From contig JAOUOQ010000001.1 in assembly GCA_029880275.1 (NCBI GenBank), positions 1 through 40,693 on the forward strand: a stretch of 40,693 bases of DNA. Direction: 5' to 3'. Positions 13,124-40,693 of this stretch are shown here, piece after piece (positions within the stretch are counted from its first letter, which is position 1; the number at the start of each line of letters is the position of its first letter). The DNA comes from Candidatus Aminicenantes bacterium (lineage in GTDB: Bacteria > Acidobacteriota > B3-B38 > Guanabaribacteriales > B3-B38). The notes beneath the pieces were generated by a model. The model saw only the letters and a list, made by a program, of their open reading frames with translations, was not told the DNA's origin and ran no database searches. A program made the position numbers and the translations under genes.

Positions 13124-13330
13124 TTACTCAGGGGGTTGCTCTCCTTCTTTGTCGTTCAGCACTGCGAATTTTATCAGCCCCCTTCTGACTTCTTCTTTGG
13201 CAATGGTGGTCCATTTCCTGGCTGTAATGTCTGCTTTGGGCTTCGCCCCGTCGATTAGTTGCTTGCATCGTAGCGCTGAAACCATTATTAATTGGAATTT
13301 ATTTCCTGGCTTATTGGTAATTGCTGCCAT
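13124..13330 (-). CDS. rpoZ: DNA-directed RNA polymerase omega subunit
   Basis: NKFQLIMVSALRCKQLIDGAKP is a typical omega core. Start moved to ATG 13328-13330, which is directly preceded by AGGAGGAGAA. The ORF track starts at 13363. Confidence 0.8.
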   Translation of the reverse strand: MAAITNKPGNKFQLIMVSALRCKQLIDGAKPKADITARKWTTIAKEEVRRGLIKFAVLNDKEGEQPPE

Positions 13331-15910: not shown

Positions 15911-17757
15911 TATATATCCTCCACAATTTTCTGCTCCTCCTCTTTGAACTGCAGGTTATAGAGCCTGGTATATACCCCATTTAAGCGGTGGAGGCTATAA
16001 TGGTCCCCTTCTTCCACTATCCTCCCTTTGTCCAATACAATTATTCTTTCCGCATTTCGTACGGTTGATAAGCGATGGGCAATTATCATGGTGGTTCGGT
16101 CCTTCATGAGATTTGCCAGGGCTTTCTGGACCAGAATCTCCGATTCGGAATCCAGGGCAGAGGTAGCTTCGTCGAGTATTAAGATGGGGGAATCCTTGAG
16201 CAGAGCGCGGGCGATGGCGATTCGCTGCCTCTCGCCACCGGAAAGCTTAGCCCCCTTCTCCCCGATAACTGCATCATACCCCTGGGGGAGCTTCTCAATA
16301 AATTCGTGGGCAAAAGCCGCGCTGGCAACAGCCTCCACTTCCTTCGGGGTAGTTATGATGTTTCCATAAGCGATGTTGTTGCGAGCGGTGTCGTTAAAGA
16401 GGATGGTCTCCTGGGTGACAATTCCAATCTGTGCTCTGAGGGAGCGCAGGCTGTATCTCCGAATGTCGATGCCATTGATGAAAATAGCGCCCGAGGTCAC
16501 CTCATAAAAGCGAGGGATCAAATTTACCAGGGTCGACTTCCCCGCTCCGCTTGCTCCCACGATAGCTAACACTTCTCCCTGATTAACCCGAAAGCTTACT
16601 CTGTTCAGAACACGCTCATCTTTGTATTGGAAGGAGACATCCCTGAACTCTATCTCTTTTATAGGTGGGGTGAGCTCAAGAGGATGGGAATCCTCCTTGA
16701 TATCACTATCCCTATCAAGTACCTGGAAAGCCCTCTGAGAAGCGGCAATTGCCTGCTGGAAGGAGTTGCTCACCCGGCTCAGTTTCTTGATAGGATCATA
16801 CATTCCATAGATAGCCGCCAGAAAAGTGCAAAAGACACCCGTAGACATTAACCCCCGGGAGATCTGCCTCCCCCCGTACCATATCATCAAAGCGGCAGCT
16901 ACTGCCCCGATAATCTCCATCAGGGGTGGGGTGAGAGAGACAAATCTCACCGCTCTTAAATTGACTTTGAGCAGCCTCTTGGTGGCTTTGATGAACTTCT
17001 TGATCTCAAACTTTTCCATCCCAAAGGCTTTCACTATGCGGCTGCCAGTTATAGTTTCAAATAATAGCGTAGAAAGCTCCGCCATCCTTTCCTGACTGGA
17101 ATGGCTGATGGAGCGGAGCTTATATCCCAGCTTAATTATCGGATATATCACCAAGGGGGCTACAAAGATGGAGATAGTGGCCAACCTCCAGTCCAGATAA
17201 AATATATAAGCCATCAATCCCAGCAGGATGAAGGAGCCTCTCAATAAATCTCCCATCTTCTCGGATACCGCCTCTTGCATGCGCTCCATATCGCTGATTA
17301 CCCTCGACATCAGCAAGCCGGTGGGATACTCGGAAAAGAAATTCAACGACTGATACTGTATCTTCTGGTAGAGCTGATTCCGTAAGTCCATGACCACACT
17401 CTGCCCCACAAAGCTAATAAAATAGTTCGCACTGTAAGAAAAAACTCCTTTGATCAGGAAGAGGAGGATAACGATTATGGGCACCTGATAGAATATAGTC
17501 TGGTGGTTGATGTTGATTATCCGGTCAATATGAAGGTAGCGATTGAGTAAAGATAAGACATTCTGCTTCTGTGCATAGGCCTCTTCTCCTCTCATCTCAA
17601 CAGCCGAGGAAGGAGTTAAGATATCGTCGAAAATCGGAATGACCAAGGAGGTAAAGGCGACCACACACATGGAGACCACCATCATGCTTAACAGAGAGAA
17701 GAAGAACCTTCCTTTATAGGGAGTTACAAATCTTATTAGTCGTAAAAATTCCTTCAT
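15910..17757 (-). CDS. msbA: lipid A export ABC transporter, fused permease/ATPase (MsbA-like)
   Basis: Six-TM exporter domain plus NBD with GASGAGKST, LSGGERQRIAIARAL and ILILDEATSALD. Lies directly downstream of lpxB. Confidence 0.88.
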   Translation of the reverse strand: MKEFLRLIRFVTPYKGRFFFSLLSMMVVSMCVVAFTSLVIPIFDDILTPSSAVEMRGEEAYAQKQNVLSLLNRYLHIDRIININHQTIFYQVPIIVILLFLIKGVFSYSANYFISFVGQSVVMDLRNQLYQKIQYQSLNFFSEYPTGLLMSRVISDMERMQEAVSEKMGDLLRGSFILLGLMAYIFYLDWRLATISIFVAPLVIYPIIKLGYKLRSISHSSQERMAELSTLLFETITGSRIVKAFGMEKFEIKKFIKATKRLLKVNLRAVRFVSLTPPLMEIIGAVAAALMIWYGGRQISRGLMSTGVFCTFLAAIYGMYDPIKKLSRVSNSFQQAIAASQRAFQVLDRDSDIKEDSHPLELTPPIKEIEFRDVSFQYKDERVLNRVSFRVNQGEVLAIVGASGAGKSTLVNLIPRFYEVTSGAIFINGIDIRRYSLRSLRAQIGIVTQETILFNDTARNNIAYGNIITTPKEVEAVASAAFAHEFIEKLPQGYDAVIGEKGAKLSGGERQRIAIARALLKDSPILILDEATSALDSESEILVQKALANLMKDRTTMIIAHRLSTVRNAERIIVLDKGRIVEEGDHYSLHRLNGVYTRLYNLQFKEEEQKIVEDI

Positions 17758-17767
17758 AGCATATGTC

Positions 17768-18895
17768 TCATATGAACTGCAGCACCGCCCTGGCTGCCCG
17801 ATCAGAAGCTCCCTGGGTGCCGAGCTTTTCCTTTACCCTCAGAAGCTCTTTCTTTACCCCCTCTTTGACCGTCGGATTAAGGAGGAGCCGTAAAACTTCA
17901 TTGGCAATATTTTTGGCTGTTACCTTAAATTGCAAAAGCTCTGTCACTACTTCCCTCCCCGCCAGGATGTTCACCAGAGATATGTATCTGACCTTCACCA
18001 GAAGCTTTGCCAATAGATAACCCGGGAAAGTTAGTTTGTACACCACCACCATAGGAGTCCCCAGTATCGCTGCTTCCAGGGTAGCTGTTCCCGAGGTAAC
18101 TACCATGAGGTCGGAATTCTTAATCAAATTGTAAGTGTCCTTTTCCACCAGGGTAATCTGGGGTAGATAGGGCCTAGCAATCCTTTCCACCAGCCTGCGG
18201 TGCACCCGCTCAGCCAGCGAGATGACAAAATTAAGCTTACGAGCCCTCTGGAGAAGAGGGATGCTCTGCAGCATTGGGGGCAGCAGATACTTTATCTCGC
18301 GCTGACGACTCCCGGGGAGCAGACTCACGATCTCTGCCTCTTTGTCCAGATTGTATTTTTGGCAGAAGCTGCTCCGGTCGAGCTCTGCCTCCACCTCTTC
18401 CAGCAGGGGATGCCCCACAAACTCAGCCTTCAACCCTTGTTGGCGATAGAGAGCTTCTTCAAAGGGAAGTATAACCAACATCTTATCGACCAGCCGGGCT
18501 ATCTTCTTTATCCTGCTGGGATACCATGCCCATACCTGTGGACTTATGTAGTAGATGATCGGTATACGCAGATGCCTAACCTTTTTGGCAAAATGGAGGT
18601 TGAAGTAGGGATAATCTATGAGAACAATAGCCGAGAGGGAATGAGTTTCGACAAATGAGATGAGCCCTTTTAATAGCCTCCTATGATACCCCAGGCTATG
18701 GAGAGCCTCCCACACACCCACCACCTCCAGATGGTCCACATCATAAAGCAACTCCACCCCCGCCTGCCGCATCCGTTCACCACCCACCCCAAAGAAGCGG
18801 GTATTGGGGGACAACTTCCTGATGGCTTTAACCAGCTCTGCCCCGTGTAGCTCACCTGATGCCTCCCCGGAGATAATCAAGATGCTACCATTCAA
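17768..18895 (-). CDS. lpxB: lipid-A-disaccharide synthase
   Basis: ISGEASGELHGAELV at the N-terminus and SGTATLEAAILGTPMVVVYK near the C-terminus. Confidence 0.93.
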   Translation of the reverse strand: MNGSILIISGEASGELHGAELVKAIRKLSPNTRFFGVGGERMRQAGVELLYDVDHLEVVGVWEALHSLGYHRRLLKGLISFVETHSLSAIVLIDYPYFNLHFAKKVRHLRIPIIYYISPQVWAWYPSRIKKIARLVDKMLVILPFEEALYRQQGLKAEFVGHPLLEEVEAELDRSSFCQKYNLDKEAEIVSLLPGSRQREIKYLLPPMLQSIPLLQRARKLNFVISLAERVHRRLVERIARPYLPQITLVEKDTYNLIKNSDLMVVTSGTATLEAAILGTPMVVVYKLTFPGYLLAKLLVKVRYISLVNILAGREVVTELLQFKVTAKNIANEVLRLLLNPTVKEGVKKELLRVKEKLGTQGASDRAARAVLQFI

Positions 18896-25991: not shown

Positions 25992-26810
25992 ATGAACTGT
26001 AAGAATAAGACTTCAAAGCTTAAAACCATCCTAATTTTGCTTCTCCTCTGCTTATTTTGCAACATAAAAAGCTGGGCGTCTGAAACACCAGGAGGACCCT
26101 ATCCGGCAACTGAAGAGGATAAATTACAATTTATCCTGAGTCAGCTGAAGAAAGCCGATGCGCAGTTGACGAGCTTCGTCGCCGACTTCAAAGAAACCAG
26201 AATCTTCCTTTACAGCCCAGAGCCGGAGGTTGCCGAGGGGAAGATATACTTTAAAAAGCCCCAGCAAGTCCGCTGGGACTATTACCCACCGGGAGAGAAG
26301 CATATTGTTCTTACCCCTGCCAAGGCGTGGCTCTACCTTCCCGAAATAAAACAGGTGCAGCTGATAAATTTGAAGGGGGAAAAGAAACTCTCCTCTCTCC
26401 CTATCGGTCTCAGCGGACCATCACCCGACTTTGAAAAGAACTATCAGATTCGTTTGATAGAAGAGGAAGGAGAAACTATAGAAAATAAGAGATATATATT
26501 GGAACTCACCCCTGTTTCCGACAGCGAAGTAGCCGCCGTCTATACCCGCATCCTGCTCACCTTATCCGAAAAGAGGTGGCTCCCTGCTGACAAGATTGAA
26601 TTGCTGGAGTTAACCGGGGACAAGACGATTATAGAACTCAGCGAAATCTCCCTCAATACCAAAATCTCCTCCAAACTTTTCAAGTTTGACGTCCCCAGAG
26701 ATGTCGAGATTATTGACCACACCGAAAAGCAGCCCCCTTCCAGAAACCCAGCCGACTTAATCTGCCAGGGCGAGCTCCTTCAACGCCTTTACCAACTCTC
26801 TATCCTCTGA
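25992..26810 (+). CDS. LolA-like periplasmic lipoprotein carrier protein
   Basis: Signal peptide. FKETRIFLYSPEPEVAEGKIYFKKPQQVRWDYYPPGEKHIVLTPAKAWLYLPEIKQVQ matches the LolA core pattern. The C-terminal extension overlaps selA on the opposite strand. Confidence 0.75.
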   Translation: MNCKNKTSKLKTILILLLLCLFCNIKSWASETPGGPYPATEEDKLQFILSQLKKADAQLTSFVADFKETRIFLYSPEPEVAEGKIYFKKPQQVRWDYYPPGEKHIVLTPAKAWLYLPEIKQVQLINLKGEKKLSSLPIGLSGPSPDFEKNYQIRLIEEEGETIENKRYILELTPVSDSEVAAVYTRILLTLSEKRWLPADKIELLELTGDKTIIELSEISLNTKISSKLFKFDVPRDVEIIDHTEKQPPSRNPADLICQGELLQRLYQLSIL

Positions 26811-28181
26811 AGGGAGAACGGTTCGGAGGTCTATAATCACCCTCTCCTCCTGAATGCGAGCAATTACTGGAAGCGGCCTCATCCTTAGCTTTCGACTGAT
26901 AGTATCAGCAGTATGGCGGGTGGATGTCACCGCAATCAATCTGCTGGGAAGTTCCACCAGGGGGATCGTTCCACCACCTACCTTGGAAGCTCCTTCCATA
27001 ATCTCTACCTTTAAAGAAGAACCTTTAACCTTACCAAGCTCTTCAATAATCGCCTCCGCCCTTCTTTGAAGTTCCTCCAACGGTGTAGAGAGCATCTGCA
27101 ATACCGGGATGGAGACCTCGGGCCTCCCTTTCAGATACTCCATGAGGGTGGCTTCCAAAGCGAGATAGGTCAGCTTTCCCGCCCTTACTGCCCTCAACAG
27201 GGGATTCCCCTTGACTCTGGCGATTAGCTCCTTATCACCCACTATGATTCCTGATTGGGGTCCTCCCAGCAATTTATCCCCACTAAAGCTGATAATGTTG
27301 GCCCCTTTTGCCAATATTTCCTCCACCGAGGGCTCATCTGTTATGCCATAAGGGCTGAGGTCTATCATATTACCGCTGCCCATATCCTCCATCACCGGTA
27401 TCCCATGCCTCCGCCCCAGCGCCACCAGCTCCTCCATCCTCACCGATTCGGTGAAGCCGAGGATGCGGAAATTGCTCTGATGAACTGCCAGCAACAGGGC
27501 TGTATTAGGAGAGATTGCCCTCTCGTAGTCTTGCAGCCTGGTCTTATTGGTGGTGCCCACCTCCTTAAGTACGGCTCCGCTTTTCTCCATGACCTCGGGT
27601 ATCCTGAATGAGCCTCCTACCTCCACCAGCTCCCCTCGCGACACAATGACCTCTTTCCCCTCTGCCAGGGTGTTCAATACCAGCAATACGGCGGCGGCGT
27701 TGTTATTTACCACCACACAAGACTTTCCCGGAAACATCCTGGAGATAAGACGCTCCACTGGAAGGTCCCGCGCCCCTCTTCTTCCCTCCTCCAGGGAGAA
27801 CTCCAGATTCAGGTAGCGGCAGGAAAGCTCCTGCAAGCGCTCCACTGCCGAGGGGCATAGCGACGCCCTCCCCAGGTTGGTATGGATGATCACCCCGGTA
27901 GCGTTGATCACCCGATGAAGGAAGGGTGAGAGCTGCGCCTTAAGCCTCTGTCTCAGCTCATCAATGAGACCCTCAGCTCTCTTTTTAACCTCCTGCAGGT
28001 CAGCCTTCCCCTGGGAGATCTCATTCCTTATCGCTGCCAGCAGCTCCCTGATGTTATGGAGGATAAACTCCCGACTGTATCTGGATATGAGCTGCTTCAC
28101 CTCATTCTTTTCCATAAGCTGGTCTACGGAGGGAAGGAAGCGAAAGCCTTTGTCGTGGTTTTCAGAGCTTGTATTTTTCAT
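26757..28181 (-). CDS. selA: L-seryl-tRNA(Sec) selenium transferase
   Basis: N-terminal LPSVDQLM, INATGVIIHTNLGRA, and the PLP-lysine region SFSGDKLLGGPQSGII. Confidence 0.93.
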   Translation of the reverse strand: MKNTSSENHDKGFRFLPSVDQLMEKNEVKQLISRYSREFILHNIRELLAAIRNEISQGKADLQEVKKRAEGLIDELRQRLKAQLSPFLHRVINATGVIIHTNLGRASLCPSAVERLQELSCRYLNLEFSLEEGRRGARDLPVERLISRMFPGKSCVVVNNNAAAVLLVLNTLAEGKEVIVSRGELVEVGGSFRIPEVMEKSGAVLKEVGTTNKTRLQDYERAISPNTALLLAVHQSNFRILGFTESVRMEELVALGRRHGIPVMEDMGSGNMIDLSPYGITDEPSVEEILAKGANIISFSGDKLLGGPQSGIIVGDKELIARVKGNPLLRAVRAGKLTYLALEATLMEYLKGRPEVSIPVLQMLSTPLEELQRRAEAIIEELGKVKGSSLKVEIMEGASKVGGGTIPLVELPSRLIAVTSTRHTADTISRKLRMRPLPVIARIQEERVIIDLRTVLPSEDRELVKALKELALAD

Positions 28182-28230: not shown

Positions 28231-28647
28231 TTGATAATTATGCCCGGGAAAAAGCGACGAACCTCATTAAAATACATCGACCAGTTGAAACCTATCGTCC
28301 CCCCGGTAGAAAGAGTGATTTCTCATCTAAACCGACGGATGATAGAAATCCTCTATCCGGAAAAACTAAGAGAAAAATTCACCATCACTATTGTCTTTGG
28401 TCACTCGAGAAAGAAGCAATATCGTGAAGCAGTAGAACTGGCAAAACAAGCCCCTTCTTATTATACCAAAGGAGAAGGACGCTGGCTAAAGCATTATGCT
28501 AAATACGACTCCCTTTCTGCTACCAAACTCTTCGAGCTAACCTCCCTCCTCGACAAATTTATCAAGTTCGAGGTTCTGGTACAGGATAAACCGCTTCCCT
28601 ATGGGCAAAACTTATGGCTGCCTCTTATGTGGATTTTCCTCCCTTAG
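28231..28647 (+). CDS. hypothetical basic protein
   Basis: 138-aa ORF with a Lys/Arg-rich N-terminus. No family recognised. Diverges from selA across only 49 nt, and its 3' end overlaps the hydrolase gene. Confidence 0.4.
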   Translation: MIIMPGKKRRTSLKYIDQLKPIVPPVERVISHLNRRMIEILYPEKLREKFTITIVFGHSRKKQYREAVELAKQAPSYYTKGEGRWLKHYAKYDSLSATKLFELTSLLDKFIKFEVLVQDKPLPYGQNLWLPLMWIFLP

Positions 28648-29436
28648 CTCCTCTTTCTCAGCGTTCTTCCCCGGCAAATGAATCTTCAGCCACTCCATAA
28701 TCATGCCCCCTGCTCCCTCCTCTTTCCACAGCAGCCTGTTGCCGTGACCCGCATTCCTGTATGTTTTCAAATCCTTTATCCCCTGTGCCAAAGAGTAGAG
28801 CTCATTGGCAGAAAATGCAGAGTAGACATCCTCTTCGCTGGCAATTAGCAGTACAGGACGCATTCTATAGCTGGTGATAGCACCTACGCAGCTCACTCCC
28901 CTATAATTCAATCCCGGGGAAATCAAGACCACAGCCCCTATCTGCCGATTCTGAGAAGCGTAATTAAGCGCCAGATTAGCGCCCATCTCTGTCCCCACTA
29001 TCCCTATCATATACGGGTCAATCTCGGCTCTGCTCTTCAGGAATTGAATCCCACTGGCTATATCCATTAGCATCCGACGAAAATCCTCGTCAGAAAAGCT
29101 CACCCATCTTATCAGCCGGTCGCCCTGCTGCATGGAATCGCCGTGACCCCTTAAATCGATGGTTAAGACCCCGTAGCCGTTCGCTTGCAAGAGCCGAGCA
29201 AGTCCTACCCAATCCAGCCGGGTACGGTTCATCCCATGCACAAGCAGTAGGGCGGGCGAGTCTCCTTTGCGGGGTGCATAATAGGTCCCCACAAGGTTAA
29301 CATTATCTTCGGTAGTAAGGTTTATATCACGGCTGGAATCTTCCTGGAGTGCCGGGCTGAAGATTCCACCTGTGGAAAGAAGCAAGCAACTGGCAAATAA
29401 AACTATGCCAAACCAGCCCTTCACCTTGCACCTCAT
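28612..29436 (-). CDS. secreted alpha/beta-fold hydrolase-like protein with non-canonical nucleophile elbow
   Basis: Signal peptide. LLLVHGMNRTRLDW...DLRGHGDS, elbow GIVGTEMGANLAL (Glu where Ser is expected), and later ASEEDV and NAGHG. Confidence 0.8.
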   Translation of the reverse strand: MRCKVKGWFGIVLFASCLLLSTGGIFSPALQEDSSRDINLTTEDNVNLVGTYYAPRKGDSPALLLVHGMNRTRLDWVGLARLLQANGYGVLTIDLRGHGDSMQQGDRLIRWVSFSDEDFRRMLMDIASGIQFLKSRAEIDPYMIGIVGTEMGANLALNYASQNRQIGAVVLISPGLNYRGVSCVGAITSYRMRPVLLIASEEDVYSAFSANELYSLAQGIKDLKTYRNAGHGNRLLWKEEGAGGMIMEWLKIHLPGKNAEKEELREENPHKRQP

Positions 29437-29520: not shown

Positions 29521-29551
29521 AAGAAACAAAATGGAAAGGGAGTTCCTTTCC
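29521..29551 (-). terminator. intrinsic terminator candidate downstream of the ABC-2 operon
   Basis: On the minus strand, GGAAAGG-AACTC-CCTTTCC (29551-29533) is followed by ATTTTGTTTCTT. Lies 79 nt after the ATPase stop codon. Confidence 0.4.
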
Positions 29552-29629
29552 ACCATTAATAATAGCTCTGCTTTGCAAGAGGAGAACTGAAAGAATCTTA
29601 TTTATTGAGCAAGGAAGGATTTCCAGTTG

Positions 29630-30361
29630 TTAGCCAGAGGCTTCTTTTACTACTTCACCCCTCATGTAATCGAGGTAGAGCTTTTCGAGGTTCTCCTTCT
29701 CCAGCTCCTCTTTGGTCATGATGCCCACCAGGCGTCCGGTCTTCATAATGCCGACCCGGTCGGCAATATCTTTCGCCCGGAAAATGTCGTGGGTGGACAT
29801 GAAAATAGCTCGATCCTCATCCTTGAGCTGACGAAGAATATCCAGGAACTCCGCCCCTGCCTTGGGGTCCAGCCCCACAGTGGGCTCGTCCAGCAGAATT
29901 GCCGGGGCGTTCTTACTTATGGCTATGGCAATGCCCAGCTTCTGCCGCATCCCCTTGGAGAAATGCTTGAGCCTTTGCTCAAAAGCCTTTTCTTGCAGCC
30001 CCACCTGGCGCATTATCTGGTAGTAATCCTCCCTGGTCATCTCCTTTCGTCCGCCCAGCTTGGTGAAGAAGTCGAGGTTCTGCCGGGCGGTGAAATTGCC
30101 GTAGAGCATCACATTCTCCGACACATAGGAGACATACTTCTTCGCTTCCAGGGGGTCTTTGGTCACATCAATGTTGTTTATCTTGGCAGTGCCTGAGGTG
30201 GGCTCAATGAAGTTCAGAAAGAGATTGATGACGGTGGTCTTCCCTGCCCCGTTGGCCCCTAAAAGGCAGAATATCTCTCCGCATTCCACCTTGAGGTTGA
30301 GATTGTCCACCGCCAGGAGACCATCCTCATAGCGTTTGCTCAGATTCATGGCTTCTAACAT
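29630..30361 (-). CDS. ABC transporter ATP-binding protein (ABC-2 subfamily type)
   Basis: GANGAGKTT, signature variant FSKGMRQKLGIAIA, ILLDEPTVGLD and STHD. GAGAGGA RBS before the ATG. Confidence 0.92.
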   Translation of the reverse strand: MLEAMNLSKRYEDGLLAVDNLNLKVECGEIFCLLGANGAGKTTVINLFLNFIEPTSGTAKINNIDVTKDPLEAKKYVSYVSENVMLYGNFTARQNLDFFTKLGGRKEMTREDYYQIMRQVGLQEKAFEQRLKHFSKGMRQKLGIAIAISKNAPAILLDEPTVGLDPKAGAEFLDILRQLKDEDRAIFMSTHDIFRAKDIADRVGIMKTGRLVGIMTKEELEKENLEKLYLDYMRGEVVKEASG

Positions 30362-30470
30362 AACTCTTATCCTCTCTTTTCATTCCGTAGTTCGTCCCAT
30401 ATTAAAAGGGAGAACATCAAGGGTAGTTAAAAAACCTTTCTACAAAACAAACTATTTTGCGAAAAATAGC

Positions 30471-32018
30471 TCAACGGCGGCTGAGCCTGATGCCGAAGAC
30501 CACAATACCCACCACCAGACCGACCAAGAACAAGACCAGAAGCGTGCTGCCCAAGATGTTGGCTTTTGCCTTGACATGAATCCTGATGGTCTTATCCTCG
30601 GTCTCTACCGGGCGATTATCGGCAATGGCTTCGGTTTTGAGCTTGGACTCGTAGTCCCCCACCCCCACATCTTCTGGAGGATTGAAAGCTATATTGACCA
30701 CCCTCTCCTTCTCCGGCATCAGGGAGGAGATTACATCGGGCTCTATCCTTGATTTCCACCGATAAGGAAGGTCGGTCTTCATGGTGATGTTGTCCAGCCG
30801 TCGGGTGCCCGTGTTGCGCACGGTGACCTCCATACTCAGCTCCTGGCCGGGGTCAATCTCATGGTAAAGGCTCACCGCTTCCACCTCGATCTTGCCCACC
30901 CCCTTGGGAATCAGCTCCAGTCTTACCACTCCGCCCTTTATTTCCTCTACCTCCTCTTTGGTGAAGTTATGAGCTTCTTTAGCGCTTAAATCCTCTGCCT
31001 CCCGCGGGTCTAAGACCAGGGCGTAAAATTCCATTTTCTTGTCGATGACTATCTGCTCATCGGCTCGCTTGGGCAGGTGGAGGGTGAGCGAGAGCTTCTT
31101 GCTGGTCACCCCTTCGGTGAACTTCACCTGCGATAGACGGGCACTGGTCTCCGTGTCAACAAACTCGTAGGATACCTGCTTGGGAAGATTGATAACCTTG
31201 AGCTTGAAGATATTGCTCTCGCTGGTGAACCTCTCCAGCAGAAGGTCGTAGGTGGCATCACCTTCTAAATTCGCCTCCTGAGAGAATTGGGAGGAGTTCA
31301 TGGTTACTATGTTGGCACTGGCGTCCTTCTGCAGATAAATCTGCTTCTCATCTAACTTATCCGCATAGTTGATGGAGACCACTACATTATCCACATCCTT
31401 CAGCAGAAGGAAATCAACATCTGCCTTGCCGTCATTGGGTAAGACCGGTATCCTCGCCTCATACGGCTCGGATATGATTGAGCCCTCGCTCTTCAGGGAG
31501 ACATACACATTGGTTAGCTTGCTGAGGTCCAGCCCGGCTGTGAGCGAGGGGTCCTCCTTCTGAAGAAACTCCAGCTGCTCCAGTGTAAAGGAACCTCCCG
31601 AGGAGTTCTTCAGGGTTAGCTTTACCCTCTTTTGCCCTTCAGAGGTTTGGTATTTTATCGCCTTGAGGATGGTCACATGGGGTCGGTCAAACACCACATT
31701 GAGCATGGCCTCCTGATAGGCTACGCGGGCGGTATAGTAGTCGGCTTCCGCTTTCTCAAATTCCTCACGGGGGATTAACTGTTTGTCGAAAAGGTCCTTC
31801 GCCCGATTATATTTCTGGCGGCGGTCCTCAAGAATAATCTGCGCTCTTTTCAATGCCAGAATCTTGAACCGCTCATCCCAACGCTGGCCTGTCTGAGGTA
31901 TTTGAGGTGTCTGGGGTGTCTGAGGAGCGACGGATGCCGAAGCCGCATGGAGAAAGAGGAGTAATGTAAGGATAAGTGCTCCCATTAAAAAAGTGTGCTT
32001 GTTCCACGAACCTTTCAC
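30471..32018 (-). CDS. secreted, C-terminally anchored protein: (PQT)4 linker, membrane-fusion-like helical hairpin, beta-rich modules, NEW3/CARDB-like domain
   Basis: Signal peptide ending ASA. KDLFDKQLIPREEFEKAEADYYTARVAYQEA resembles HlyD/MFP hairpins. ELSMEVTVRNTGTRRLDNITMKTDLPYRW...NPPEDVGVGDYESKLKTEA resembles NEW3/CARDB. C-terminal TM plus RLSRR. GTG start with AGGAG 7 nt upstream. Confidence 0.75.
   Translation of the reverse strand: MKGSWNKHTFLMGALILTLLLFLHAASASVAPQTPQTPQIPQTGQRWDERFKILALKRAQIILEDRRQKYNRAKDLFDKQLIPREEFEKAEADYYTARVAYQEAMLNVVFDRPHVTILKAIKYQTSEGQKRVKLTLKNSSGGSFTLEQLEFLQKEDPSLTAGLDLSKLTNVYVSLKSEGSIISEPYEARIPVLPNDGKADVDFLLLKDVDNVVVSINYADKLDEKQIYLQKDASANIVTMNSSQFSQEANLEGDATYDLLLERFTSESNIFKLKVINLPKQVSYEFVDTETSARLSQVKFTEGVTSKKLSLTLHLPKRADEQIVIDKKMEFYALVLDPREAEDLSAKEAHNFTKEEVEEIKGGVVRLELIPKGVGKIEVEAVSLYHEIDPGQELSMEVTVRNTGTRRLDNITMKTDLPYRWKSRIEPDVISSLMPEKERVVNIAFNPPEDVGVGDYESKLKTEAIADNRPVETEDKTIRIHVKAKANILGSTLLVLFLVGLVVGIVVFGIRLSRR
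31891..31926 (-). repeat. 4 x 9-nt tandem repeat encoding PQTPQTPQIPQT
   Basis: Plus-strand units gtctgaggt / atttgaggt / gtctggggt / gtctgagga, in frame within the 515-aa gene just after the signal peptide. Confidence 0.85.
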
Positions 32019-32059
32019 TGCTGCTCTCCTAAAAAACAGGATTTGCTAACTTTAATCTA

Positions 32060-32068
32060 ATTATACCA
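32060..32068 (-). promoter_or_regulatory. extended -10 promoter candidate (TGGTATAAT) for the 515-aa gene and ATPase
   Basis: The reverse complement of 32060-32068 reads TGGTATAAT. It sits about 42 nt upstream of GTG 32018, inside the 201-nt gap after permease A. There is no good -35. Confidence 0.35.
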
Positions 32069-32219
32069 CATTCCAGGAAGAATCTATAATCCTCTCGGTC
32101 TCTTTTGCCATTGGCAAGTCCAAGCAATAACCTTTACTATATAAGACGCAAAAATAGAAGGAATAGTTCTCTCTTTATGCCGCCAGCTTATTTGTAGCGC
32201 TCATTATAGTAGATTAATC

Positions 32220-33668
32220 TTAAAATCTGGGGTCGTATCGGATGAACAGCACAAAGGAGATCAGAAAGAAAATGATATTTAGCATAATCATATAAAATAT
32301 TCCCCAGAGATAATCTCCAAAATTGACCGGCATTTTTGCCTCTGGCTCTTCGGGTATTTTAAATTGAGCCTCATCCAATTTGATGTCACTAAAAGCATCT
32401 GGTGATAATCCTTTTATAACAAAATTACCAGACGAAACCCAAAAGCTTCGCTTTTTATCAGCTACCTTAAAAAGATTCTGTTTCTTATAGTCAAAAGCTA
32501 TATGCTGAAATTTCTCTCTGATATTTTCTGCCAATCTTTGAAGCAAAGCCTGGTGTGCATACCCTGTGCCGCCGGTCATTTCGCACAGCTTCTGATAAAA
32601 GAAAAAGGGGGATATCTTCGCTAACAAGAATTTTAATCGTATCTGCTCCTTAATTTTGTTCTGGAAATCTCTTTTCACTTTCGCCTCGGCATTTAGCATT
32701 TTGTTTTGTATAGAGAAATGCTTCTCGTAGATTTCTTTTTGCAATTGCTCTATTAATTTCTGCTTTTCCTCATCAGAGATAGGCTTAGTTAATATCGGCT
32801 CTAATAGTAAAGATGAAACACTTAATTGCCGAGAAAATGGCATCCTTGCATCTTTAATATTTTCCTCAAGGACAATGGGAGATGGGGAAGGCTTTACATA
32901 CTCACCGGCTATAAAGCTTAAGTTAGGAATTATAAAAATAAAGGCAATCCATATTAAAAGAGCAAAAAGCAGAGAGATGGATGAGCTTTTAAAGAGAACC
33001 GAGCAGAATATCCCCATCAAGCTTATCAGGGAGATGAATAACACAGATAGTATGAAAATTATAAGTATCTTATAAAAATCTGAGATGCTCAGATACACAT
33101 TCCCCATCACCCTCAATATCAGAACATCAATCAGCAGCCCCATCACCATCAGCACCGAGAGAAACATCACCACACTGATATACTTGCCGAGAAGGAGGGT
33201 TGATTTTCTTACCGGGTTGGACAGGGTCAATGCCAGAATGCCACTCTCCCTTTCCCCGGAAATCTCAGAATAGGTCAGCAGCAGCGCCAGTAGACTGATA
33301 AATACCCCTACCATAAATGTCCAATCGGGCTGGACAATGTCCTTCAAATAGGAGAGGGCATCAATCTTCTTGTACTCCTCCTCCACCAGAAAGGGAGTAA
33401 TCCTGAACACATCCGGCAGCCCCTTCTCACCCCCCTCGGATAAAAAGATTAACCTGGACGGCTTCTTAACATATTCTATGCTTTCAATGGAATATCCATC
33501 TCTTGCCGAGGCATTGAGCCTATGATAAACCCTTTGCCTTTGATTGATTTCATTGGAGTAATAGAGCCCGCTTAAGGAAATCAAAATTATTATCACCAGC
33601 AGAGATATGACCAGCCGTAGGTCCAGGAGGTATTTCCGCAGGGTATTTAAAATAATCAGCCGTTTCAT
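32220..33668 (-). CDS. ABC-2 family permease with long charged C-terminal insert (paralogue A)
   Basis: 482 aa. N-terminal TM, a loop, about 5 clustered TMs, a charged helical segment and a final TM. The first 38 and last 36 residues are identical to paralogue B. Confidence 0.85.
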   Translation of the reverse strand: MKRLIILNTLRKYLLDLRLVISLLVIIILISLSGLYYSNEINQRQRVYHRLNASARDGYSIESIEYVKKPSRLIFLSEGGEKGLPDVFRITPFLVEEEYKKIDALSYLKDIVQPDWTFMVGVFISLLALLLTYSEISGERESGILALTLSNPVRKSTLLLGKYISVVMFLSVLMVMGLLIDVLILRVMGNVYLSISDFYKILIIFILSVLFISLISLMGIFCSVLFKSSSISLLFALLIWIAFIFIIPNLSFIAGEYVKPSPSPIVLEENIKDARMPFSRQLSVSSLLLEPILTKPISDEEKQKLIEQLQKEIYEKHFSIQNKMLNAEAKVKRDFQNKIKEQIRLKFLLAKISPFFFYQKLCEMTGGTGYAHQALLQRLAENIREKFQHIAFDYKKQNLFKVADKKRSFWVSSGNFVIKGLSPDAFSDIKLDEAQFKIPEEPEAKMPVNFGDYLWGIFYMIMLNIIFFLISFVLFIRYDPRF

Positions 33669-33750
33669 CTATCTTAAATCGTATCTATTAAAGTTGTACA
33701 AAGATAGAAGCATCAGTATCACATTCCAGGATATTAATATAACAAATCCT
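33669..33750 (-). pseudogene. 82-nt relic of the 3' end of the 419-aa permease gene (duplication scar)
   Basis: The minus strand reads GFVILISWNVILMLLSLYNFNRYDLR-stop. The live gene end is GLVILISWNVILLLLSLYNFNRYDLR-stop (35305-35386). The relic TAG abuts the ATG of paralogue A exactly as at the live junction. Confidence 0.85.
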
Positions 33751-35304
33751 TCAAAATCTTGGGTCGTATCTGATAAACAGCACAAAGGAGATGAGAAAGA
33801 AAATGATATTTAGCATAATCATATAAAATATTCCCCAAAGATAATCTCCAAAATTGACCGGTATCCCTGTTTCCGGCTCATCGGGTATTTTAAATTGACC
33901 CTCTTCCAATTTGATGTCACTTAAATCTGAGTAGGCGGATAATTTTTTTATTACAAAAGCTCCATCCTCAGCAAGTATATTGAGCATTGTTTTTATATCT
34001 AGAATCTCTCCCTGTGCGTATGCACCTGGCTCTTTGGGTAATAAGTCATTTAGCCTAGACTTGCCAAGCCAAGCGAACCCAGATGGTGATTCATCAGATT
34101 CTTTTATAAGATACTGTTTTTGCTGGGCAAGAGCTACAGGTTGAAATTGCTCTTTAATATTTTCTGCCAATCTTTGAAGCAAAGCCTGATGTGCATACCC
34201 GGTGCTGCCGGTCATTTCGCACAGATTTTGATAAAGGAAAAAGGGGGATATCTTCGCTAACAGAAATTTCAATCGTATCTGCTCCTTAATTTTGTTCTGG
34301 AAATCTCTTTTCACTTTCGCCTCTGCTTGTAGCCTTTCATTCCTTACAGAGAAATGCTTCTCATAGATTTCTTTTTGCAATTGCTCTACTAATATCCGCT
34401 TCTGCTCATCAGGGATAGGCTTATTCACTATCGGCTCTAATAATGAATCCGAAATAGATATACGACCACGAAATTGGTCATTTGCAATTCTAATGTTCTC
34501 CTCCAGAACAATTGGAGATGGGGCAGGCCTCACATACTCACCGGCGATAAAGCTTAAATTCGGTATTACAAAAATGAAAGCAATCCATATCAAAAGAGCA
34601 AAAAGTAGAGAAATGGATGAGCTTTTAAAGAGAACCGAACAGAATATCCCCATCAAGCTGATAAGGGAGATAAATAAAACAGATAATATGAAAATTATCA
34701 GGATTTTATAAAAATCTGAGATGCCTAGATACACATTCCCTATAATCCTCAATATCAGAACATCAATCATCAACCCCATCAGCAGCAGCACGGAGAGAAA
34801 CACCACCGCACTGATATACTTGCCGAGAAGGAGGTCGGATTTTCTCACCGGATTGGATATGGTTAATGCCAGAATGCCGCTCTCCCTTTCCCCGGAGATC
34901 TCAGAATAGGTCAGCAGCAGCGCCAGCAGGCTGATAAATACCCCCACTATAAAGGTCCAATCGGGCTGGATGATGTCCTTCAAATAGGAGAGGGCATCAA
35001 TCTTCTTATATTCTTCCTCTACCACAAAGGGGGTAATCCTGAACACATCCGGCAGTCCCTTCTCACCCCCCTCGGATAAAAAGATCAGTTTAGCCGGCTT
35101 TTTCACATACTCTATGCTCTCAATGGAAGATTCATCTCTTGCTAAAGTATTAAGTCTATTATAAACCCTTTGCCTTTGATTGATTTCATGCGAGTAATAA
35201 AGCCCGCTTAAGGATATGAGTATTATTATCACCAGCAGAGATATGACCAGCCGTAGGTCCAGGAGGTATTTCCGCAGGGTATTTAAAATAATCAGCCGTT
35301 TCAT
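33751..35304 (-). CDS. ABC-2 family permease with long charged C-terminal insert (paralogue B)
   Basis: 517 aa, collinear with paralogue A, with an extra segment of about 35 aa in the C-terminal soluble region. Its ATG immediately follows the TAG of the upstream permease gene. Confidence 0.85.
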   Translation of the reverse strand: MKRLIILNTLRKYLLDLRLVISLLVIIILISLSGLYYSHEINQRQRVYNRLNTLARDESSIESIEYVKKPAKLIFLSEGGEKGLPDVFRITPFVVEEEYKKIDALSYLKDIIQPDWTFIVGVFISLLALLLTYSEISGERESGILALTISNPVRKSDLLLGKYISAVVFLSVLLLMGLMIDVLILRIIGNVYLGISDFYKILIIFILSVLFISLISLMGIFCSVLFKSSSISLLFALLIWIAFIFVIPNLSFIAGEYVRPAPSPIVLEENIRIANDQFRGRISISDSLLEPIVNKPIPDEQKRILVEQLQKEIYEKHFSVRNERLQAEAKVKRDFQNKIKEQIRLKFLLAKISPFFLYQNLCEMTGSTGYAHQALLQRLAENIKEQFQPVALAQQKQYLIKESDESPSGFAWLGKSRLNDLLPKEPGAYAQGEILDIKTMLNILAEDGAFVIKKLSAYSDLSDIKLEEGQFKIPDEPETGIPVNFGDYLWGIFYMIMLNIIFFLISFVLFIRYDPRF

Positions 35305-36564
35305 CTATCTTAAATCGTATCTATTGAAGTTATACAAGGAGAGAAGAAGTAGTATTACATTCCAGGATATTAAGATAACAAGTCCCTTCAGGCTTTCTGA
35401 GAGACTTGCCAGGAGAGAGGATTTCTTATACTCCACTTGGGGAATTCCTGAGGTATCCAGGGGCTCGTCACCGGTGCTCCAAGTGGTTAGTCTGCGAGGG
35501 TCTTTTTTTAGTTTCTCCGCCTGCCACAAAGCGAAGGTCTCGTTCAAATTCTGCGCCTGTCTGATAAATTTCAGATAAGACGGCAGACTGGTATTGGAAA
35601 GAGATTCTAACCCGCTCTGGTAGGCCATAAAAGGAGACAGAAAAGAAAGAGAATCTCTTATATTATATTGCTGAACCTTCTCATTTATATACAGCATATC
35701 CCATAGGTTTGCAGAAGGTTTTTCGCCTGTTTCTCCCATAATTGGCTGCTCTATCTCGGGAATGGGATGGTATCTCTCAGCTATATAGGAAGAGAAATTT
35801 GGTATTATCAAAAGCAATACAATCCACAGTAGCAGCAACAGGGCAAGCGAATTAGCCGACGAGTGAAAAAGGGATGAAATAGATACCCCTAACAGGGCGA
35901 AAACCGAGATAAACACCACGCTCAACAGAAAAGAGAAATTGAGCCGTAGAAAATCTTCAACATTCAAATCAATCTTCCGGGAGCTCACTAATATCAACTC
36001 CAGAATTATAAATGACATCAGCAGGGGAATTATTAAGGTTAAAATGGAGCCAAAAAACTCTCCCAGAATAACCTTGTATCTGGCAAGGGAATGAGAAAAG
36101 CACAGGCTCAATGTCCTATCCTCTTTTTGCCCGGTTATGGAGTCGTAGGTTATGATAATGGCAATAAAGCTGATCAGCACGGCGATTATCTTCCCCAGGT
36201 CCAGATACCCAAACAGCGGGGACAGGCTGTAATGGCTGCTGTATTTGGAGATGCTCATCCTCCCGGCAAATTGCCCAGGGATTTTAATGCTCGAGCCAAA
36301 CTCGTCGGTATAGCCGGTGCTTATCAGGGACAGCTGCTCCACCGGACGATTTAAATGCAAATGAAGCTGCCCATACATTCTGGCGTAAAATCTGACAGTG
36401 GCAGCACGATCCTCAGCCGCCTCGTACAGCTCCTTTTCCATCTGATAGCGCCCCAGTAAAACCAGCGTCCCGATGCTTATACAGGCCACCAATAGAATGG
36501 TCAAGATGATAAACCTTAATGAGAAAATATTGAGTAGTATCCTTTTTTTAATAATTAACCACAT
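35305..36564 (-). CDS. ABC-2 family permease, third divergent paralogue
   Basis: 419 aa with the same layout (N-terminal TM, loop, TM cluster, soluble segment, last TM ending NRYDLR) but low identity to A and B. Confidence 0.8.
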   Translation of the reverse strand: MWLIIKKRILLNIFSLRFIILTILLVACISIGTLVLLGRYQMEKELYEAAEDRAATVRFYARMYGQLHLHLNRPVEQLSLISTGYTDEFGSSIKIPGQFAGRMSISKYSSHYSLSPLFGYLDLGKIIAVLISFIAIIITYDSITGQKEDRTLSLCFSHSLARYKVILGEFFGSILTLIIPLLMSFIILELILVSSRKIDLNVEDFLRLNFSFLLSVVFISVFALLGVSISSLFHSSANSLALLLLLWIVLLLIIPNFSSYIAERYHPIPEIEQPIMGETGEKPSANLWDMLYINEKVQQYNIRDSLSFLSPFMAYQSGLESLSNTSLPSYLKFIRQAQNLNETFALWQAEKLKKDPRRLTTWSTGDEPLDTSGIPQVEYKKSSLLASLSESLKGLVILISWNVILLLLSLYNFNRYDLR

Positions 36565-36778
36565 AATGGCTTATCTCCAAAATACTATATTGTTATAGTT
36601 AAATGCAATAAAGCATATTATTTGTCCTTTCGAAGAGTAAATATATTACATTTTTCTAAGTTTTATTAAATCTATACTTCTCCTTTAATATATATAAACG
36701 ACATTATTGAGCGAGTTATTACAACCTTTTTTATTCAAAAATCAATATAAAAAAGCAAGTGGAAAAGCCAATTTAAAC

Positions 36779-36807
36779 TTGACAAATAGAGACTAAGATT
36801 ATATATT
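36779..36807 (+). promoter_or_regulatory. sigma70 promoter (TTGACA-17 nt-TATATT) of hsp20
   Basis: -35 at 36779-36784 and -10 at 36802-36807. GAGGAGG RBS at 36827-36833, with the ATG at 36843. Confidence 0.6.
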
Positions 36808-36842
36808 ATATTATGACTAAAGATTAGAGGAGGTGATGTTCA

Positions 36843-37289
36843 ATGCAACTCATCAGATGGAAACCTTTCAGAGAGTTCTTCACTCTTCCCGAGCGGTTCG
36901 ACCGGCTATTTGAGGAGAGCCTGGCTCGCATGGAGGAAAATCTGCCCTCATGGTGGATGAGCAGGTGGCCCTCGACCGAAATCTACCAGACCGACCAAGA
37001 GATCGTCCTCAAGGCGGAGCTGCCGGGGATTGACCCAAAGAATATGAGCATCCATGTGGACCATGGCAGGCTGCGCATAGAGTGTGAGCGGAAGCATGAG
37101 AAGCAAGCCAATGAAGAGAACTATCATCGTCGGGAGCTCGCCTACGGCAAGTTCTCCCGAACCTTCACCCTCCCAACCTCAATCGACCAGGGGAAGATTA
37201 ATGCCCGTTATGAAAAGGGCATCCTCCACATAACCCTCCCCAAGAAGGAGGAACACAGAGAAAAGGAAATAAAGATAAAGGTCGAATAA
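36843..37289 (+). CDS. small heat-shock protein, Hsp20/alpha-crystallin family
   Basis: TEIYQTDQEIVLKAELPGIDPKNMSI...YGKFSRTFTLP...GILHITLPK. Confidence 0.93.
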   Translation: MQLIRWKPFREFFTLPERFDRLFEESLARMEENLPSWWMSRWPSTEIYQTDQEIVLKAELPGIDPKNMSIHVDHGRLRIECERKHEKQANEENYHRRELAYGKFSRTFTLPTSIDQGKINARYEKGILHITLPKKEEHREKEIKIKVE

Positions 37290-37594: not shown

Positions 37595-38842
37595 GTGGAT
37601 AAAAGTGTCCTGGTTATCGGAGGTGGGGTAGCGGGTATTACGGCAGCCCTTAAGTTAGCCAACAGCGGAGTGCGGGTTGTGCTGGTGGAAAAGAGCCCGG
37701 AACTGGGTGGTGCGGTTGTTTCATATTGCTGTAAAGCCACCGAACAATGCAACAAGTGCTCGGTGTGCGTCGCCAATCAAAAGATGGAAGAGCTGTGGAG
37801 CGCGCCCAATCTCTCACTTTTCACCAGCTCCGCCATAGGTAAAGTTGCTCGCGGTGAGGGCGGGTTTCATATCACGGTAACGCGCAAGCCCACCTATGTT
37901 GATGATAATAAATGTGTTCGCTGTAAGCTGTGCACTGAGAAATGCCCCACCAAGCCAAGCTCCATTTTCCTCCCCCCTCCTCACTCACCTTTGCAGAGCT
38001 ATGTAATTGACACTGACAGGTGTCTATATTTTCAAAGCAAAAAGTGTAAGCTTTGCCAGGAGGTGTGCCCTGCGGAAGCGATTAACCTTTCCCAAAAGGC
38101 AGGGGAGGAAAACTTTCAGGTGGGAGCACTCGTTGTGGCAAGCGGCTTTTCTCCCTTTGACTCCTCCCGGAAGAAGAGATACGGCTATGGAGTTTATCCC
38201 GATGTAATCACAGCCCTTGAACTGGAGGAGCAGCTGCGAATAGAAGGGAAGCTCAGCCGACCCTCCGATGGCAGCCAACCCAAACAGGTAGCCTTTATCC
38301 AATGCTTCGGCAGCCGGGATGCTCATGTGGGGAACAACTACTGCTCCAGAGTCTGTTGCACCTACACCATGAGACTGGCCAACCTTCTCAAGTTCAAGCA
38401 CCCCGACTCAAGCATAACTATATTTTATATGGACATTCAGACTTTCGGAAAAGAGTTTGAGCAATTTTACCAGCAGTGCCGCCAGAAAATTCAATTTATC
38501 CGTGATATGCCCTCCCTCATCCAGCAGGATGGGGACAACCAGCTCTTAATCACCTATCAGGACAGAAAAGAGGGTAAAGTGGAGCAGAGCAATTTCGACC
38601 TGGCTGTCCTCTCTGTGGGTCTTTGTCCGGGAGAGGATACCGAGAAGCTGGTTGAATTGCTGGGGCTTCAGACCAATGAGCACGGCTTCTTCAAGTCGCT
38701 AAGCCCCCTGCAAACCAACGAAACAGAGGCAGAGGGAATATTCCTTGCCGGCACCTGTCAGGGACCCCGTGACATAAGCGAATCTGTCGCCCATTCTCTC
38801 GGTGCGGCGGAGAAAGCCCTCGCCTATCTGGGAGCTGAATAG
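37595..38842 (+). CDS. hdrA: HdrA-family FAD/Fe-S oxidoreductase (core plus inserted ferredoxin domain)
   Basis: VLVIGGGVAGITAA...EKSPELGG, KCSVCV, two CX2CX2CX3CP motifs, and the HdrA cluster motif CFGSRDAHVGNNYCSRVCC. GTG start. Confidence 0.85.
   Translation: MDKSVLVIGGGVAGITAALKLANSGVRVVLVEKSPELGGAVVSYCCKATEQCNKCSVCVANQKMEELWSAPNLSLFTSSAIGKVARGEGGFHITVTRKPTYVDDNKCVRCKLCTEKCPTKPSSIFLPPPHSPLQSYVIDTDRCLYFQSKKCKLCQEVCPAEAINLSQKAGEENFQVGALVVASGFSPFDSSRKKRYGYGVYPDVITALELEEQLRIEGKLSRPSDGSQPKQVAFIQCFGSRDAHVGNNYCSRVCCTYTMRLANLLKFKHPDSSITIFYMDIQTFGKEFEQFYQQCRQKIQFIRDMPSLIQQDGDNQLLITYQDRKEGKVEQSNFDLAVLSVGLCPGEDTEKLVELLGLQTNEHGFFKSLSPLQTNETEAEGIFLAGTCQGPRDISESVAHSLGAAEKALAYLGAE

Positions 38843-40693
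<1,851 letters not shown>

Follow-up and report, generated by a model that had tools for sequence, protein, structure and literature searches.

A predicted ABC-2 exporter with paired NosY-like permeases and a candidate periplasmic adaptor in Candidatus Aminicenantes and other uncultured bacteria

Organization of the locus

Five open reading frames (ORFs) on the minus strand of contig JAOUOQ010000001.1, from a Candidatus Aminicenantes bacterium, encode three permeases, a 515 aa accessory protein and a single ATPase (Table 1). They run from position 36564 down to 29630 of the 40,693 nt stretch analysed here (the window) and, judged by their sequences, constitute a conserved ATP-binding cassette (ABC) exporter of the ABC-2 type without a characterized orthologue. 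We propose that this module is a heterodimeric NosY-like exporter, and that the 515 aa protein is a non-canonical adaptor linking the pump with a TolC-like channel, presumably encoded in trans in this genome; we put the probability of this reading at roughly one half. It draws on gene content, protein folds, the pairing pattern of the permeases, linkage to outer-membrane factor (OMF) genes and conservation of a motif, all of which were directly observed.

The five minus-strand ORFs had been reported, with the same boundaries, by a first-pass annotation of the sequence, which described a self-contained system with an adaptor-like partner and suggested a periplasm-spanning exporter. As reported there, the TAG stop codon of the 419 aa permease gene immediately adjoins the ATG of the 517 aa permease gene (a TAGATG junction). 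The remaining gaps within the module measure 82 nt (517/482), 201 nt (482/515) and 109 nt (515/ATPase). The comparative data given below come from the 80 best related loci, all of them from metagenome-assembled genomes (MAGs) or single-cell assemblies, in which six-frame ORFs were annotated with profiles of the window proteins. The nearest relative, L004 (candidate division B38 MAG, NJBL01000001.1), is collinear with the window at about 89% DNA identity.

Table 1. Genes and other features of the module, in window coordinates
Feature	Position	Strand	Description
Permease alpha, 419 aa	35305-36564	-	NosY-like ABC-2 (type V) permease, six transmembrane helices, DUF3526
Permease beta-1, 517 aa	33751-35304	-	Extra tandem copy of the second permease type
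Permease beta-2, 482 aa	32220-33668	-	Copy matching the sole second permease of L004
Accessory/adaptor protein, 515 aa	30471-32018	-	GTG start, AGGAG upstream; PF10633
ABC ATPase, 243 aa	29630-30361	-	DrrA/ABCA-like nucleotide-binding domain; PF00005
Duplication scar (82 nt spacer)	33669-33750	-	Alignment to 35296-35406
201 nt gap, likely internal promoter/operator	32019-32219	-	Sequence read; predicted function
Divergent intergenic region, 278 nt	36565-36842	-	Putative sigma70-type promoter of the permease genes
Terminator-like hairpin at the stop of the 515 aa gene	30468-30487	-	Consensus scan only
Intrinsic terminator at the module end, hairpin and T-run	29530-29554	-	Sequence and consensus scan

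The permeases are of two types

All three permeases matched ABC2_membrane_2 (PF12679) in Pfam, with scores of 117.4 bits (419 aa), 73.7 bits (517 aa) and 70.8 bits (482 aa) against a gathering cut-off of 27.2, and the 419 aa protein also passed the cut-off for DUF3526 (27.8 bits). No Pfam match to FtsX was found among them. The first-pass annotation had counted three different transmembrane domain (TMD) genes, a count that does not survive closer comparison. The 517 and 482 aa proteins are paralogues with 77% identity, and the spacer between their genes contains a copy of the 3′ end of the 419 aa gene, including the TAGATG sequence, that is approximately 90% identical over the 3′ ~85 nt. Furthermore, a blastn comparison with the collinear L004 locus showed that this relative carries the 419 and 482 aa permeases only, with the 517 aa copy absent; its 482 aa ORF scored 955 bits against the 482 aa protein of the window. 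Taken together, these three observations indicate that the third permease is a tandem duplicate, and the permeases of the window thus resolve, at the sequence level, into two types (alpha and beta) plus a lineage-specific duplicate. The two types are only distantly alike, with 28% identity between the 419 aa protein and the 517/482 aa proteins, restricted to the transmembrane (TM) core. Both beta paralogues are under purifying selection (overall dN/dS of 0.26, with dS of ~0.4), and the ratio is 0.42-0.53 in DUF3526 versus 0.09-0.13 in the TM helices and first loop.

Hydropathy and the AlphaFold2 (AF2) model agree on six TM helices per permease, in the order TM1, an 80 aa loop, TM2-5, DUF3526 and TM6; those of the 419 aa protein lie at about 19-37, 121-139, 174-192, 211-229, 239-257 and 392-410. 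The layout first described for these proteins (an N-terminal TM, a loop, a cluster, a charged segment and a last TM) is therefore preserved, except that the cluster comprises four helices rather than about five, and the total is six rather than about seven. The charged peptide quoted at the time and the RYD(P/L)R ends of the permeases are present in the translations. The charged ‘soluble segment’ itself is better described as a DUF3526 loop of 134-244 aa inserted between TM5 and TM6, and is probably periplasmic by analogy with NosY, because a NosY-like topology, with the N-terminus inside and an ExxGT-type motif in the TM2-TM3 loop, would place both large loops in the periplasm.

NosY is the closest relative of known structure by both sequence and fold. 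The AF2 model of the 419 aa protein (pLDDT of 78, pTM of 0.79) was searched against the PDB, and the 11 top matches were all NosY, with TM-scores of 0.61-0.79 on NosY; the best fold was NosY 7o0y_D, with a TM-score of 0.77 on the target, and PmtD, ABCG and ABCA ranked after NosY. A profile of 29 permeases gave E=1.8e-12 for NosY and E=6e-3 for PmtD in the PDB. The 29 homologues were gathered with an alignment query, after a word-indexed search with the 419 aa query had returned 9, a small number that is explained by the rapid divergence of the permeases. Across relatives, permease identity drops to 18-29%.

A conserved ATPase and an Ig-domain accessory protein

The 243 aa ATPase has an intact Walker A (GANGAGKT), Walker B (LLDEP), signature (FSKGMRQK, in place of LSGGQ) and H-loop (H191), and none of these catalytic motifs varies among 67 cluster ATPases. 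In the Q-loop, the window protein and 67/67 cluster ATPases have Glu82 in place of glutamine, at a position that aligns to the Q of ABCA3. The best PDB matches were the nucleotide-binding domains (NBDs) of ABCA3 and ABCA1, and NosF matched at 9e-31. Top NCBIfam matches include the drrA, lantibiotic-protection and PmtA families; the score for drrA (TIGR01188) was 188 bits, under the equivalog cut-off.

The AF2 model of the 515 aa protein (pLDDT of 87) shows a Sec signal peptide, a PQ-rich disordered linker, an alpha-hairpin, three immunoglobulin (Ig)-like beta-sandwich domains and a C-terminal TM anchor with an RR tail. The signal peptide is of the Sec type and lacks cysteine (..HAASA|S), residues 28-46 are disordered, and no strands precede the hairpin, the helices of which occupy residues 49-78 and 84-110 with pLDDT >90. 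The third Ig-like domain corresponds to NEW3/NPCBM_assoc (PF10633, residues 389-461). No Pfam match was found in this protein to HlyD, Biotin_lipoyl or HlyD_D23, in contrast to YbhG, or to NosD, Beta_helix or GldG/ABC_transp_aux. A fold search returned generic tandem Ig arrays (HYDIN/ASH, integrin calf, alpha-2-macroglobulin) at TM-scores of 0.2-0.3, and so gave no functional lead.

The hairpin is the part of the protein that resembles known adaptors. Membrane fusion protein (MFP) models matched residues 56-104 (TIGR00999 at E=5.5e-6, RND_mfp (TIGR01730) at 0.003 and EmrA at 0.015), and the hairpin of the family showed weak similarity to MexJ (E=0.029) and, by hhalign, to YbhG (E=5.6e-4, probability 30%), with the R…L…S positions aligned. 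Of the families guessed by the first-pass annotation, ABC2_membrane_2, DUF3526, NEW3 and ABC_tran were all recovered in Pfam, and the MFP-type match to the hairpin in NCBIfam is weak. In an alignment of 88 sequences of the 515 aa family, the hairpin tip follows the pattern RxxxLxxxxxxS, with R72 in 68/88, L76 in 86/88 and S83 in 86/88 sequences, although a motif this short holds little information. The window protein keeps R72 and L76 and has Pro83 instead of Ser (tip R72/L76/P83). In MacA, AcrA and MexA, the RLS motif is the TolC-binding interface, HlyD has an RLT variant, and the serine is the most permissive position of the motif (PMC3391258). In canonical adaptors, the hairpin is spliced into a lipoyl domain, which is followed by a six-stranded beta-barrel and a membrane-proximal (MP) domain (PMC4446572).

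The 515 aa family is large (268 clusters at 50% identity, E<=1e-30) and strikingly conserved, its full-length members sharing 47-58% identity across B38, KSB1, Glassbacteria, Latescibacterota, Gemmatimonadota, Aminicenantes and Bacteroidota. In one member (P0160), Ig domain 1 is present in three additional copies, and the domain pattern of P0167 suggests a similar arrangement; such copies are expected of a spacer and fit a stalk role. Another, P0192, lacks the alpha-hairpin. In P0239, a permease is fused ahead of a full-length adaptor with consistent topology; as a side observation, this fusion could be a gene-calling artefact. We also considered a role as metal chaperone, which was rejected because the family has no invariant cysteine and its only near-invariant His/Met residues, H386, H481 and M396, form no obvious metal site.

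Related loci in other phyla

In approximately 70 of the 80 loci, from at least six phyla, the adaptor gene has one ATPase gene and/or module-type permease genes as its neighbours, and this co-occurrence was seen in Aminicenantes, Latescibacterota, Gemmatimonadota, KSB1, Glassbacteria and Bacteroidota. There is one adaptor gene per cluster, nearly always adjoining one ATPase of the module type, and the number of DUF3526 permease genes varies from 1 (in an Aminicenantes ‘permease-ATPase-adaptor’ arrangement) to 8. A neighbourhood survey had been set by the first-pass annotation as its refutation test; the genes co-occur across several phyla, and the grouping stands.

The same survey bears on the simplest alternative, that the five genes are mere neighbours and form no functional unit. 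The intergenic distances (82, 201 and 109 nt) could be read in this way, as could the probable internal promoter and the G+C content at third codon positions (GC3), which is 0.45-0.53 in the permease genes versus 0.66-0.70 in the adaptor and ATPase genes. However, the repeated association of the adaptor gene with the ATPase and/or permease genes described above contradicts this explanation, as does the existence of the permease-adaptor fusion protein, and we consider it very improbable.

Permease genes recur as ordered pairs. Among 195 clustered permeases, the subfamily pairs CE (20 instances), DG (14), DF (8), IH (6), KF (3) and LF (3) were found, and the reversed orders occurred 0-1 times. 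In the main pairs, D-G and C-E, each pair consists of one 419-like and one 517/482-like member. Recurring ordered pairs of this kind are a signature of heterodimeric TMDs, and the 419 aa protein of the window with its 517/482 aa partners corresponds in sequence to one such pair, with the second member duplicated.

A gene of the TolC family of OMFs (PF02321, two repeats) was found within the cluster in 33/80 loci; that of L061 lies at 8355-9935. Of the 68 loci with at least 1.5 kb of upstream sequence, 26 have the OMF gene immediately before the adaptor gene, and in 12 of these 26 the two genes share 4 nt. Adaptors of the canonical HlyD type do not recur in the surveyed clusters.

Two further arrangements were noted. 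At L001 (Latescibacterota OZ252228.1, equivalent to L007), a 423 aa NosD-like right-handed beta-helix protein is encoded at 11979-13250, after the adaptor and ATPase genes, and no DUF3526 permease was found within 8-10 kb at L001/L007. The 3′ ends of L051, L052, L058, L061, L062 and L072 carry a convergent mini-system, made up of one A-type DUF3526 permease together with a further ATPase and lacking an adaptor of its own; this Aminicenantes mini-system resembles the three-gene ‘permease-ATPase-adaptor’ loci of other Aminicenantes.

A model for the exporter and its alternatives

How the components of the module assemble, in which direction they transport and what they carry, we infer from these comparisons. 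In the mechanism that we propose, two copies of the 243 aa ATPase would power a heterodimer of NosY-like permeases, composed of the 419 aa alpha protein and either the 517 or the 482 aa beta protein. A heterodimer is supported by the 28% identity between the 419 and 517 aa proteins, by their abutting genes and by the ordered pairs of related loci. As the beta copies differ mainly in DUF3526, beta-1 and beta-2 would probably give rise to two pump variants. The 515 aa protein would act as a periplasmic adaptor, held in the inner membrane by its C-terminal helix, with the three Ig-like domains as a stalk and the MFP-like alpha-hairpin at the membrane-distal end. In related bacteria, the hairpin most likely docks a TolC-like OMF encoded immediately upstream; in the window genome, the outer-membrane partner would be encoded elsewhere. 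The adaptor-like partner proposed by the first-pass annotation is supported by these data, and its suggestion of a periplasm-spanning exporter is supported in part, being strengthened by the linkage to TolC-like genes and by the RLS-type hairpin tip. The permease-adaptor fusion, the additional Ig domain 1 copies and the likely diderm envelope of the organism lend the model further support.

Several findings weigh against this model. No OMF gene was found among the 10 larger ORFs scanned in the 40.7 kb window or in the collinear 21.5 kb relative, and a linked OMF is missing in 47/80 loci. The window hairpin has Pro83 at a position where 86/88 relatives have Ser, the similarity between hairpin and MFPs is weak (E of 5.5e-6 to 0.03), and the RLS motif is low in information. 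The 515 aa protein also lacks the lipoyl, beta-barrel and MP domains of all characterized adaptors, and NosFY, the nearest relative of known structure, does not act as a pump across the envelope.

The absent OMF and Pro83 would fit, for the lineage of the window, a machine confined to the inner membrane in the manner of NosDFY or GldAFG, in which the ABC-2 dimer passes movement or cargo to the anchored 515 aa protein for envelope assembly or remodelling, with no outer-membrane duct, at least here. NosY is the closest solved relative of the permeases, NosF is a good match for the ATPase, GldF is the only NCBIfam permease match, and in the Nos and Gld systems alike, the partner of the PF12679 permease is a large accessory protein in the periplasm. 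The NosD-like beta-helix gene that follows the adaptor and ATPase genes at one Latescibacterota locus points the same way. Such a machine does not account for the translational coupling between OMF and adaptor genes in many relatives, where no other adaptor candidate exists, or for the conserved motif at the hairpin tip. Homology to NosD or GldG was not found in the 515 aa protein, its family has no invariant cysteine or obvious metal site at H386, H481 and M396, and there are no nos or gld genes nearby. We regard this explanation as the main alternative, less probable than the proposed exporter.

Within the proposed exporter, the type V fold, the ABCA-like NBD and the similarity to PmtD point to hydrophobic or amphipathic cargo, which, by analogy with ABCA, ABCG and PmtCD, would be moved from the inner membrane or periplasm out through the outer membrane. 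As DUF3526 is the part that varies between the paralogues, and as the number of permease pairs grows while ATPase, adaptor and OMF stay single, the pairs may represent interchangeable specificity modules. The substrate could also be imagined more narrowly, with the module exporting membrane-active peptides or antibiotics for self-protection or immunity, similar to LanFEG, PmtCD or DrrAB, and with the permease pairs widening its specificity. This idea concerns the substrate and is compatible with either architecture. It is encouraged by the drrA, lantibiotic-protection and PmtA families among the NCBIfam matches of the ATPase, by the rank of PmtD as second-best solved permease relative, by the variable, multi-copy and fast-evolving permease genes beside a conserved adaptor and ATPase, and by the sigma54 promoters and two-component system of relatives described below, which suggest inducibility. 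All scores are, however, far under the equivalog cut-offs, and biosynthetic or bacteriocin genes recurring beside the clusters were not found; we consider a dedicated immunity role improbable.

Extending the proposed exporter to its relatives, we tentatively suggest an unrecognized class of envelope-spanning ABC pump, in which a common ATPase, an Ig-stalk adaptor with an MFP-like hairpin and a TolC-like channel would serve up to four interchangeable NosY-like heterodimers, with the variable DUF3526 domains setting the substrate; it would be an exporter counterpart to the shared-module energy-coupling factor (ECF) importers. It is equally conjectural that the class extends over Aminicenantes, Latescibacterota, Gemmatimonadota, KSB1, Bacteroidota and their relatives, often under a dedicated sigma54 two-component switch.

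Regulatory elements and neighbouring genes

Histidine kinases with a GAF domain, together with sigma54-dependent (NtrC-type) response regulators, flank approximately 25 of the related loci. In at least 15 loci, TGGCAC-N5-TTGC elements precede the OMF/adaptor operon and a divergent permease pair, at a distance of 30-100 nt. One such −24/−12 element, CTGGCACGAATATTGCT, lies in L061 (8076-8301), adjoining the genes for a GAF histidine kinase and an NtrC-type regulator, and equivalent positions were found in L035, L040, L043, L044, L052, L053, L058, L062, L064, L067, L070, L074 and L076. The combination of sigma54 promoters with a dedicated two-component system suggests that expression is inducible in these relatives.

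The window is different. Its divergent intergenic region separates the 419 aa permease gene from an Hsp20 gene and, as the first-pass annotation had proposed for a promoter region, is AT-rich; hexamers resembling those of sigma70 promoters occur on its minus strand at 36771-36744 and 36669-36640. Unlike the related loci, the region contains no sigma54 −24/−12 element; a candidate (TGGC…TTGC, at about 36770-36755) was rejected because its GG-GC spacing is 11 nt rather than the required 10 nt. Neither a histidine kinase nor a sigma54 regulator, nor an OMF, was present among the 10 larger window ORFs scanned. At the other end of the module, the predicted terminator was found as a hairpin followed by a T-run (29554-29530).

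The 201 nt gap between the 482 and 515 aa genes contains a perfect 13 nt palindrome, TTGCCAATGGCAA, at 32117-32105 and an extended −10 sequence (TGgTATAAT) at 32068-32060. In L004, this gap is 92% identical, above the flanking coding DNA, and both elements are intact. The palindrome and extended −10 may be an operator and an internal promoter for the 515 aa and ATPase genes, and their conservation in L004 suggests that the adaptor and ATPase genes may have a promoter of their own; the module is probably not a single transcription unit. Together with the OMF genes of related clusters, which have no counterpart in the window, the probable internal promoter makes it doubtful that the module is self-contained. 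The terminator-like hairpin that overlaps the stop codon of the 515 aa gene, 107 nt before the ATPase start, is followed by a T-run, and may act as an attenuator setting the ratio of adaptor to ATPase. GC3 is 0.45-0.53 in the permease genes versus 0.66 in the adaptor gene, 0.70 in the ATPase gene and 0.58-0.69 in other window genes, possibly reflecting different codon usage, expression level or a separate origin of the permease cassette.

Around the module, the ORFs at 26757-28181, 28612-29436, 36843-37289, 37595-40531 and 15910-18895 were scanned or read. Pfam identified a secreted alpha/beta hydrolase directly downstream of the module and the divergent Hsp20. Translations alone point to SelA (selenocysteine synthase) and to two HdrA-like ORFs of the flavoprotein/ferredoxin type, which suggests that the organism is anaerobic and makes use of selenocysteine. 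The window also encodes LpxB and an MsbA-like ABC exporter (Pfam), and the organism is therefore likely to be diderm, with an outer membrane expected. No recurrence of the window neighbour genes with the module was found in other phyla. A scan of the 10 larger window ORFs revealed neither nos nor gld genes, and no nos genes were found among the recurrent neighbours of related loci.

Comparison with known systems

The first-pass annotation had matched the module to no characterized family. That view holds in so far as no characterized orthologue was found and no module protein reached an NCBIfam equivalog cut-off; it has to be amended in that NosY is a clear relative in sequence and fold, and that the logic of the system is that of YbhGFSR and MacAB-TolC. 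Curated family names go no further than ‘DUF3526/NEW3 domain-containing’. A full-text literature search for DUF3526 returned no papers, searches for the NEW3 domain with ABC transporters and for COG1470 returned irrelevant mentions only, and those for tripartite ABC-2 pumps or Ig-like adaptors returned nothing on the system of the window. Among the PADLOC defence families, there was no match for the 419 and 517 aa permeases or the 515 aa protein (the 482 aa copy was not scanned), and generic ABC similarity only for the ATPase.

The NosDFY(L) system of Pseudomonas stutzeri (PDB 7o0y, 7znq) is related through the TM core of its permease (E=1.8e-12; Foldseek TM-score of 0.77-0.79 on NosY) and through NosF (9e-31 to the window ATPase), and each of the two systems combines a PF12679 permease and a large accessory protein in the periplasm. 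In contrast, NosY is the product of one gene, forms a homodimer and has ~270 aa without DUF3526, whereas the window has two permease types of 419-517 aa. The accessory protein of the window has a hairpin and three Ig-like domains rather than the NosD beta-helix, the module has no nosZ or nosL context, and its relatives are linked to OMF genes. GldAFG, from the gliding machinery of Bacteroidota, likewise combines an ATPase, a PF12679-type permease and a large membrane-anchored periplasmic auxiliary protein, and both systems occur in FCB-group bacteria. However, the NCBIfam scores for GldF (21-28 bits versus a cut-off of 288.5) and GldA (141 versus 402.6) are low, the 515 aa protein has no GldG-type (ABC_transp_aux) domain, and no gld genes lie nearby.

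Among export pumps, Escherichia coli YbhGFSR has tandem ABC-2 permease genes (YbhS/YbhR), an ATPase and a periplasmic adaptor gene in one operon. YbhS and YbhR belong to PF12698, without DUF3526, and their alignment to the window permease profile by hhalign is marginal; YbhG is a canonical HlyD-family adaptor with lipoyl and beta-barrel domains. YbhF is a fused tandem NBD, and its 1737 bp gene encodes a protein far longer than the single NBD of the window. There are no permease arrays in YbhGFSR, which is regarded as a tripartite ABC pump dependent on a periplasmic adaptor protein (PMC8277102). MacAB-TolC and DevBCA-TolC share the logic proposed here, in which an ABC transporter, an anchored adaptor with an RLS-tipped hairpin and a TolC-like OMF cooperate, and many relatives of the window module are genetically linked to an OMF. 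MacB and DevC are nevertheless of type VII, with an FtsX-like architecture of four TM helices, a periplasmic domain between TM1 and TM2 and a fused NBD, whereas the window permeases have the type V NosY-like fold and a separate NBD. In the window adaptor, Ig-like domains replace the lipoyl, beta-barrel and MP domains, and the anchor is C-terminal rather than N-terminal.

Adaptor-dependent ABC export pumps such as MacAB-TolC and YbhGFSR are already known; three traits appear to be new here, namely the scaffold of the adaptor, an engine of the NosY type that carries DUF3526, and the arrays of permease genes. If our model is correct, an adaptor with another kind of scaffold, made of Ig-like domains and a C-terminal anchor and with only the hairpin tip in common with MFPs, could engage TolC-type channels, and a type V NosY-like transporter would join the inner-membrane engines of tripartite pumps. 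The model also offers a concrete functional hypothesis for DUF3526 and for the 515 aa NEW3-domain family, which is widespread in uncultured diderm phyla common in sediments. Finally, it would reveal a modular design in which many permease pairs are served by one ATPase, one adaptor and one channel.

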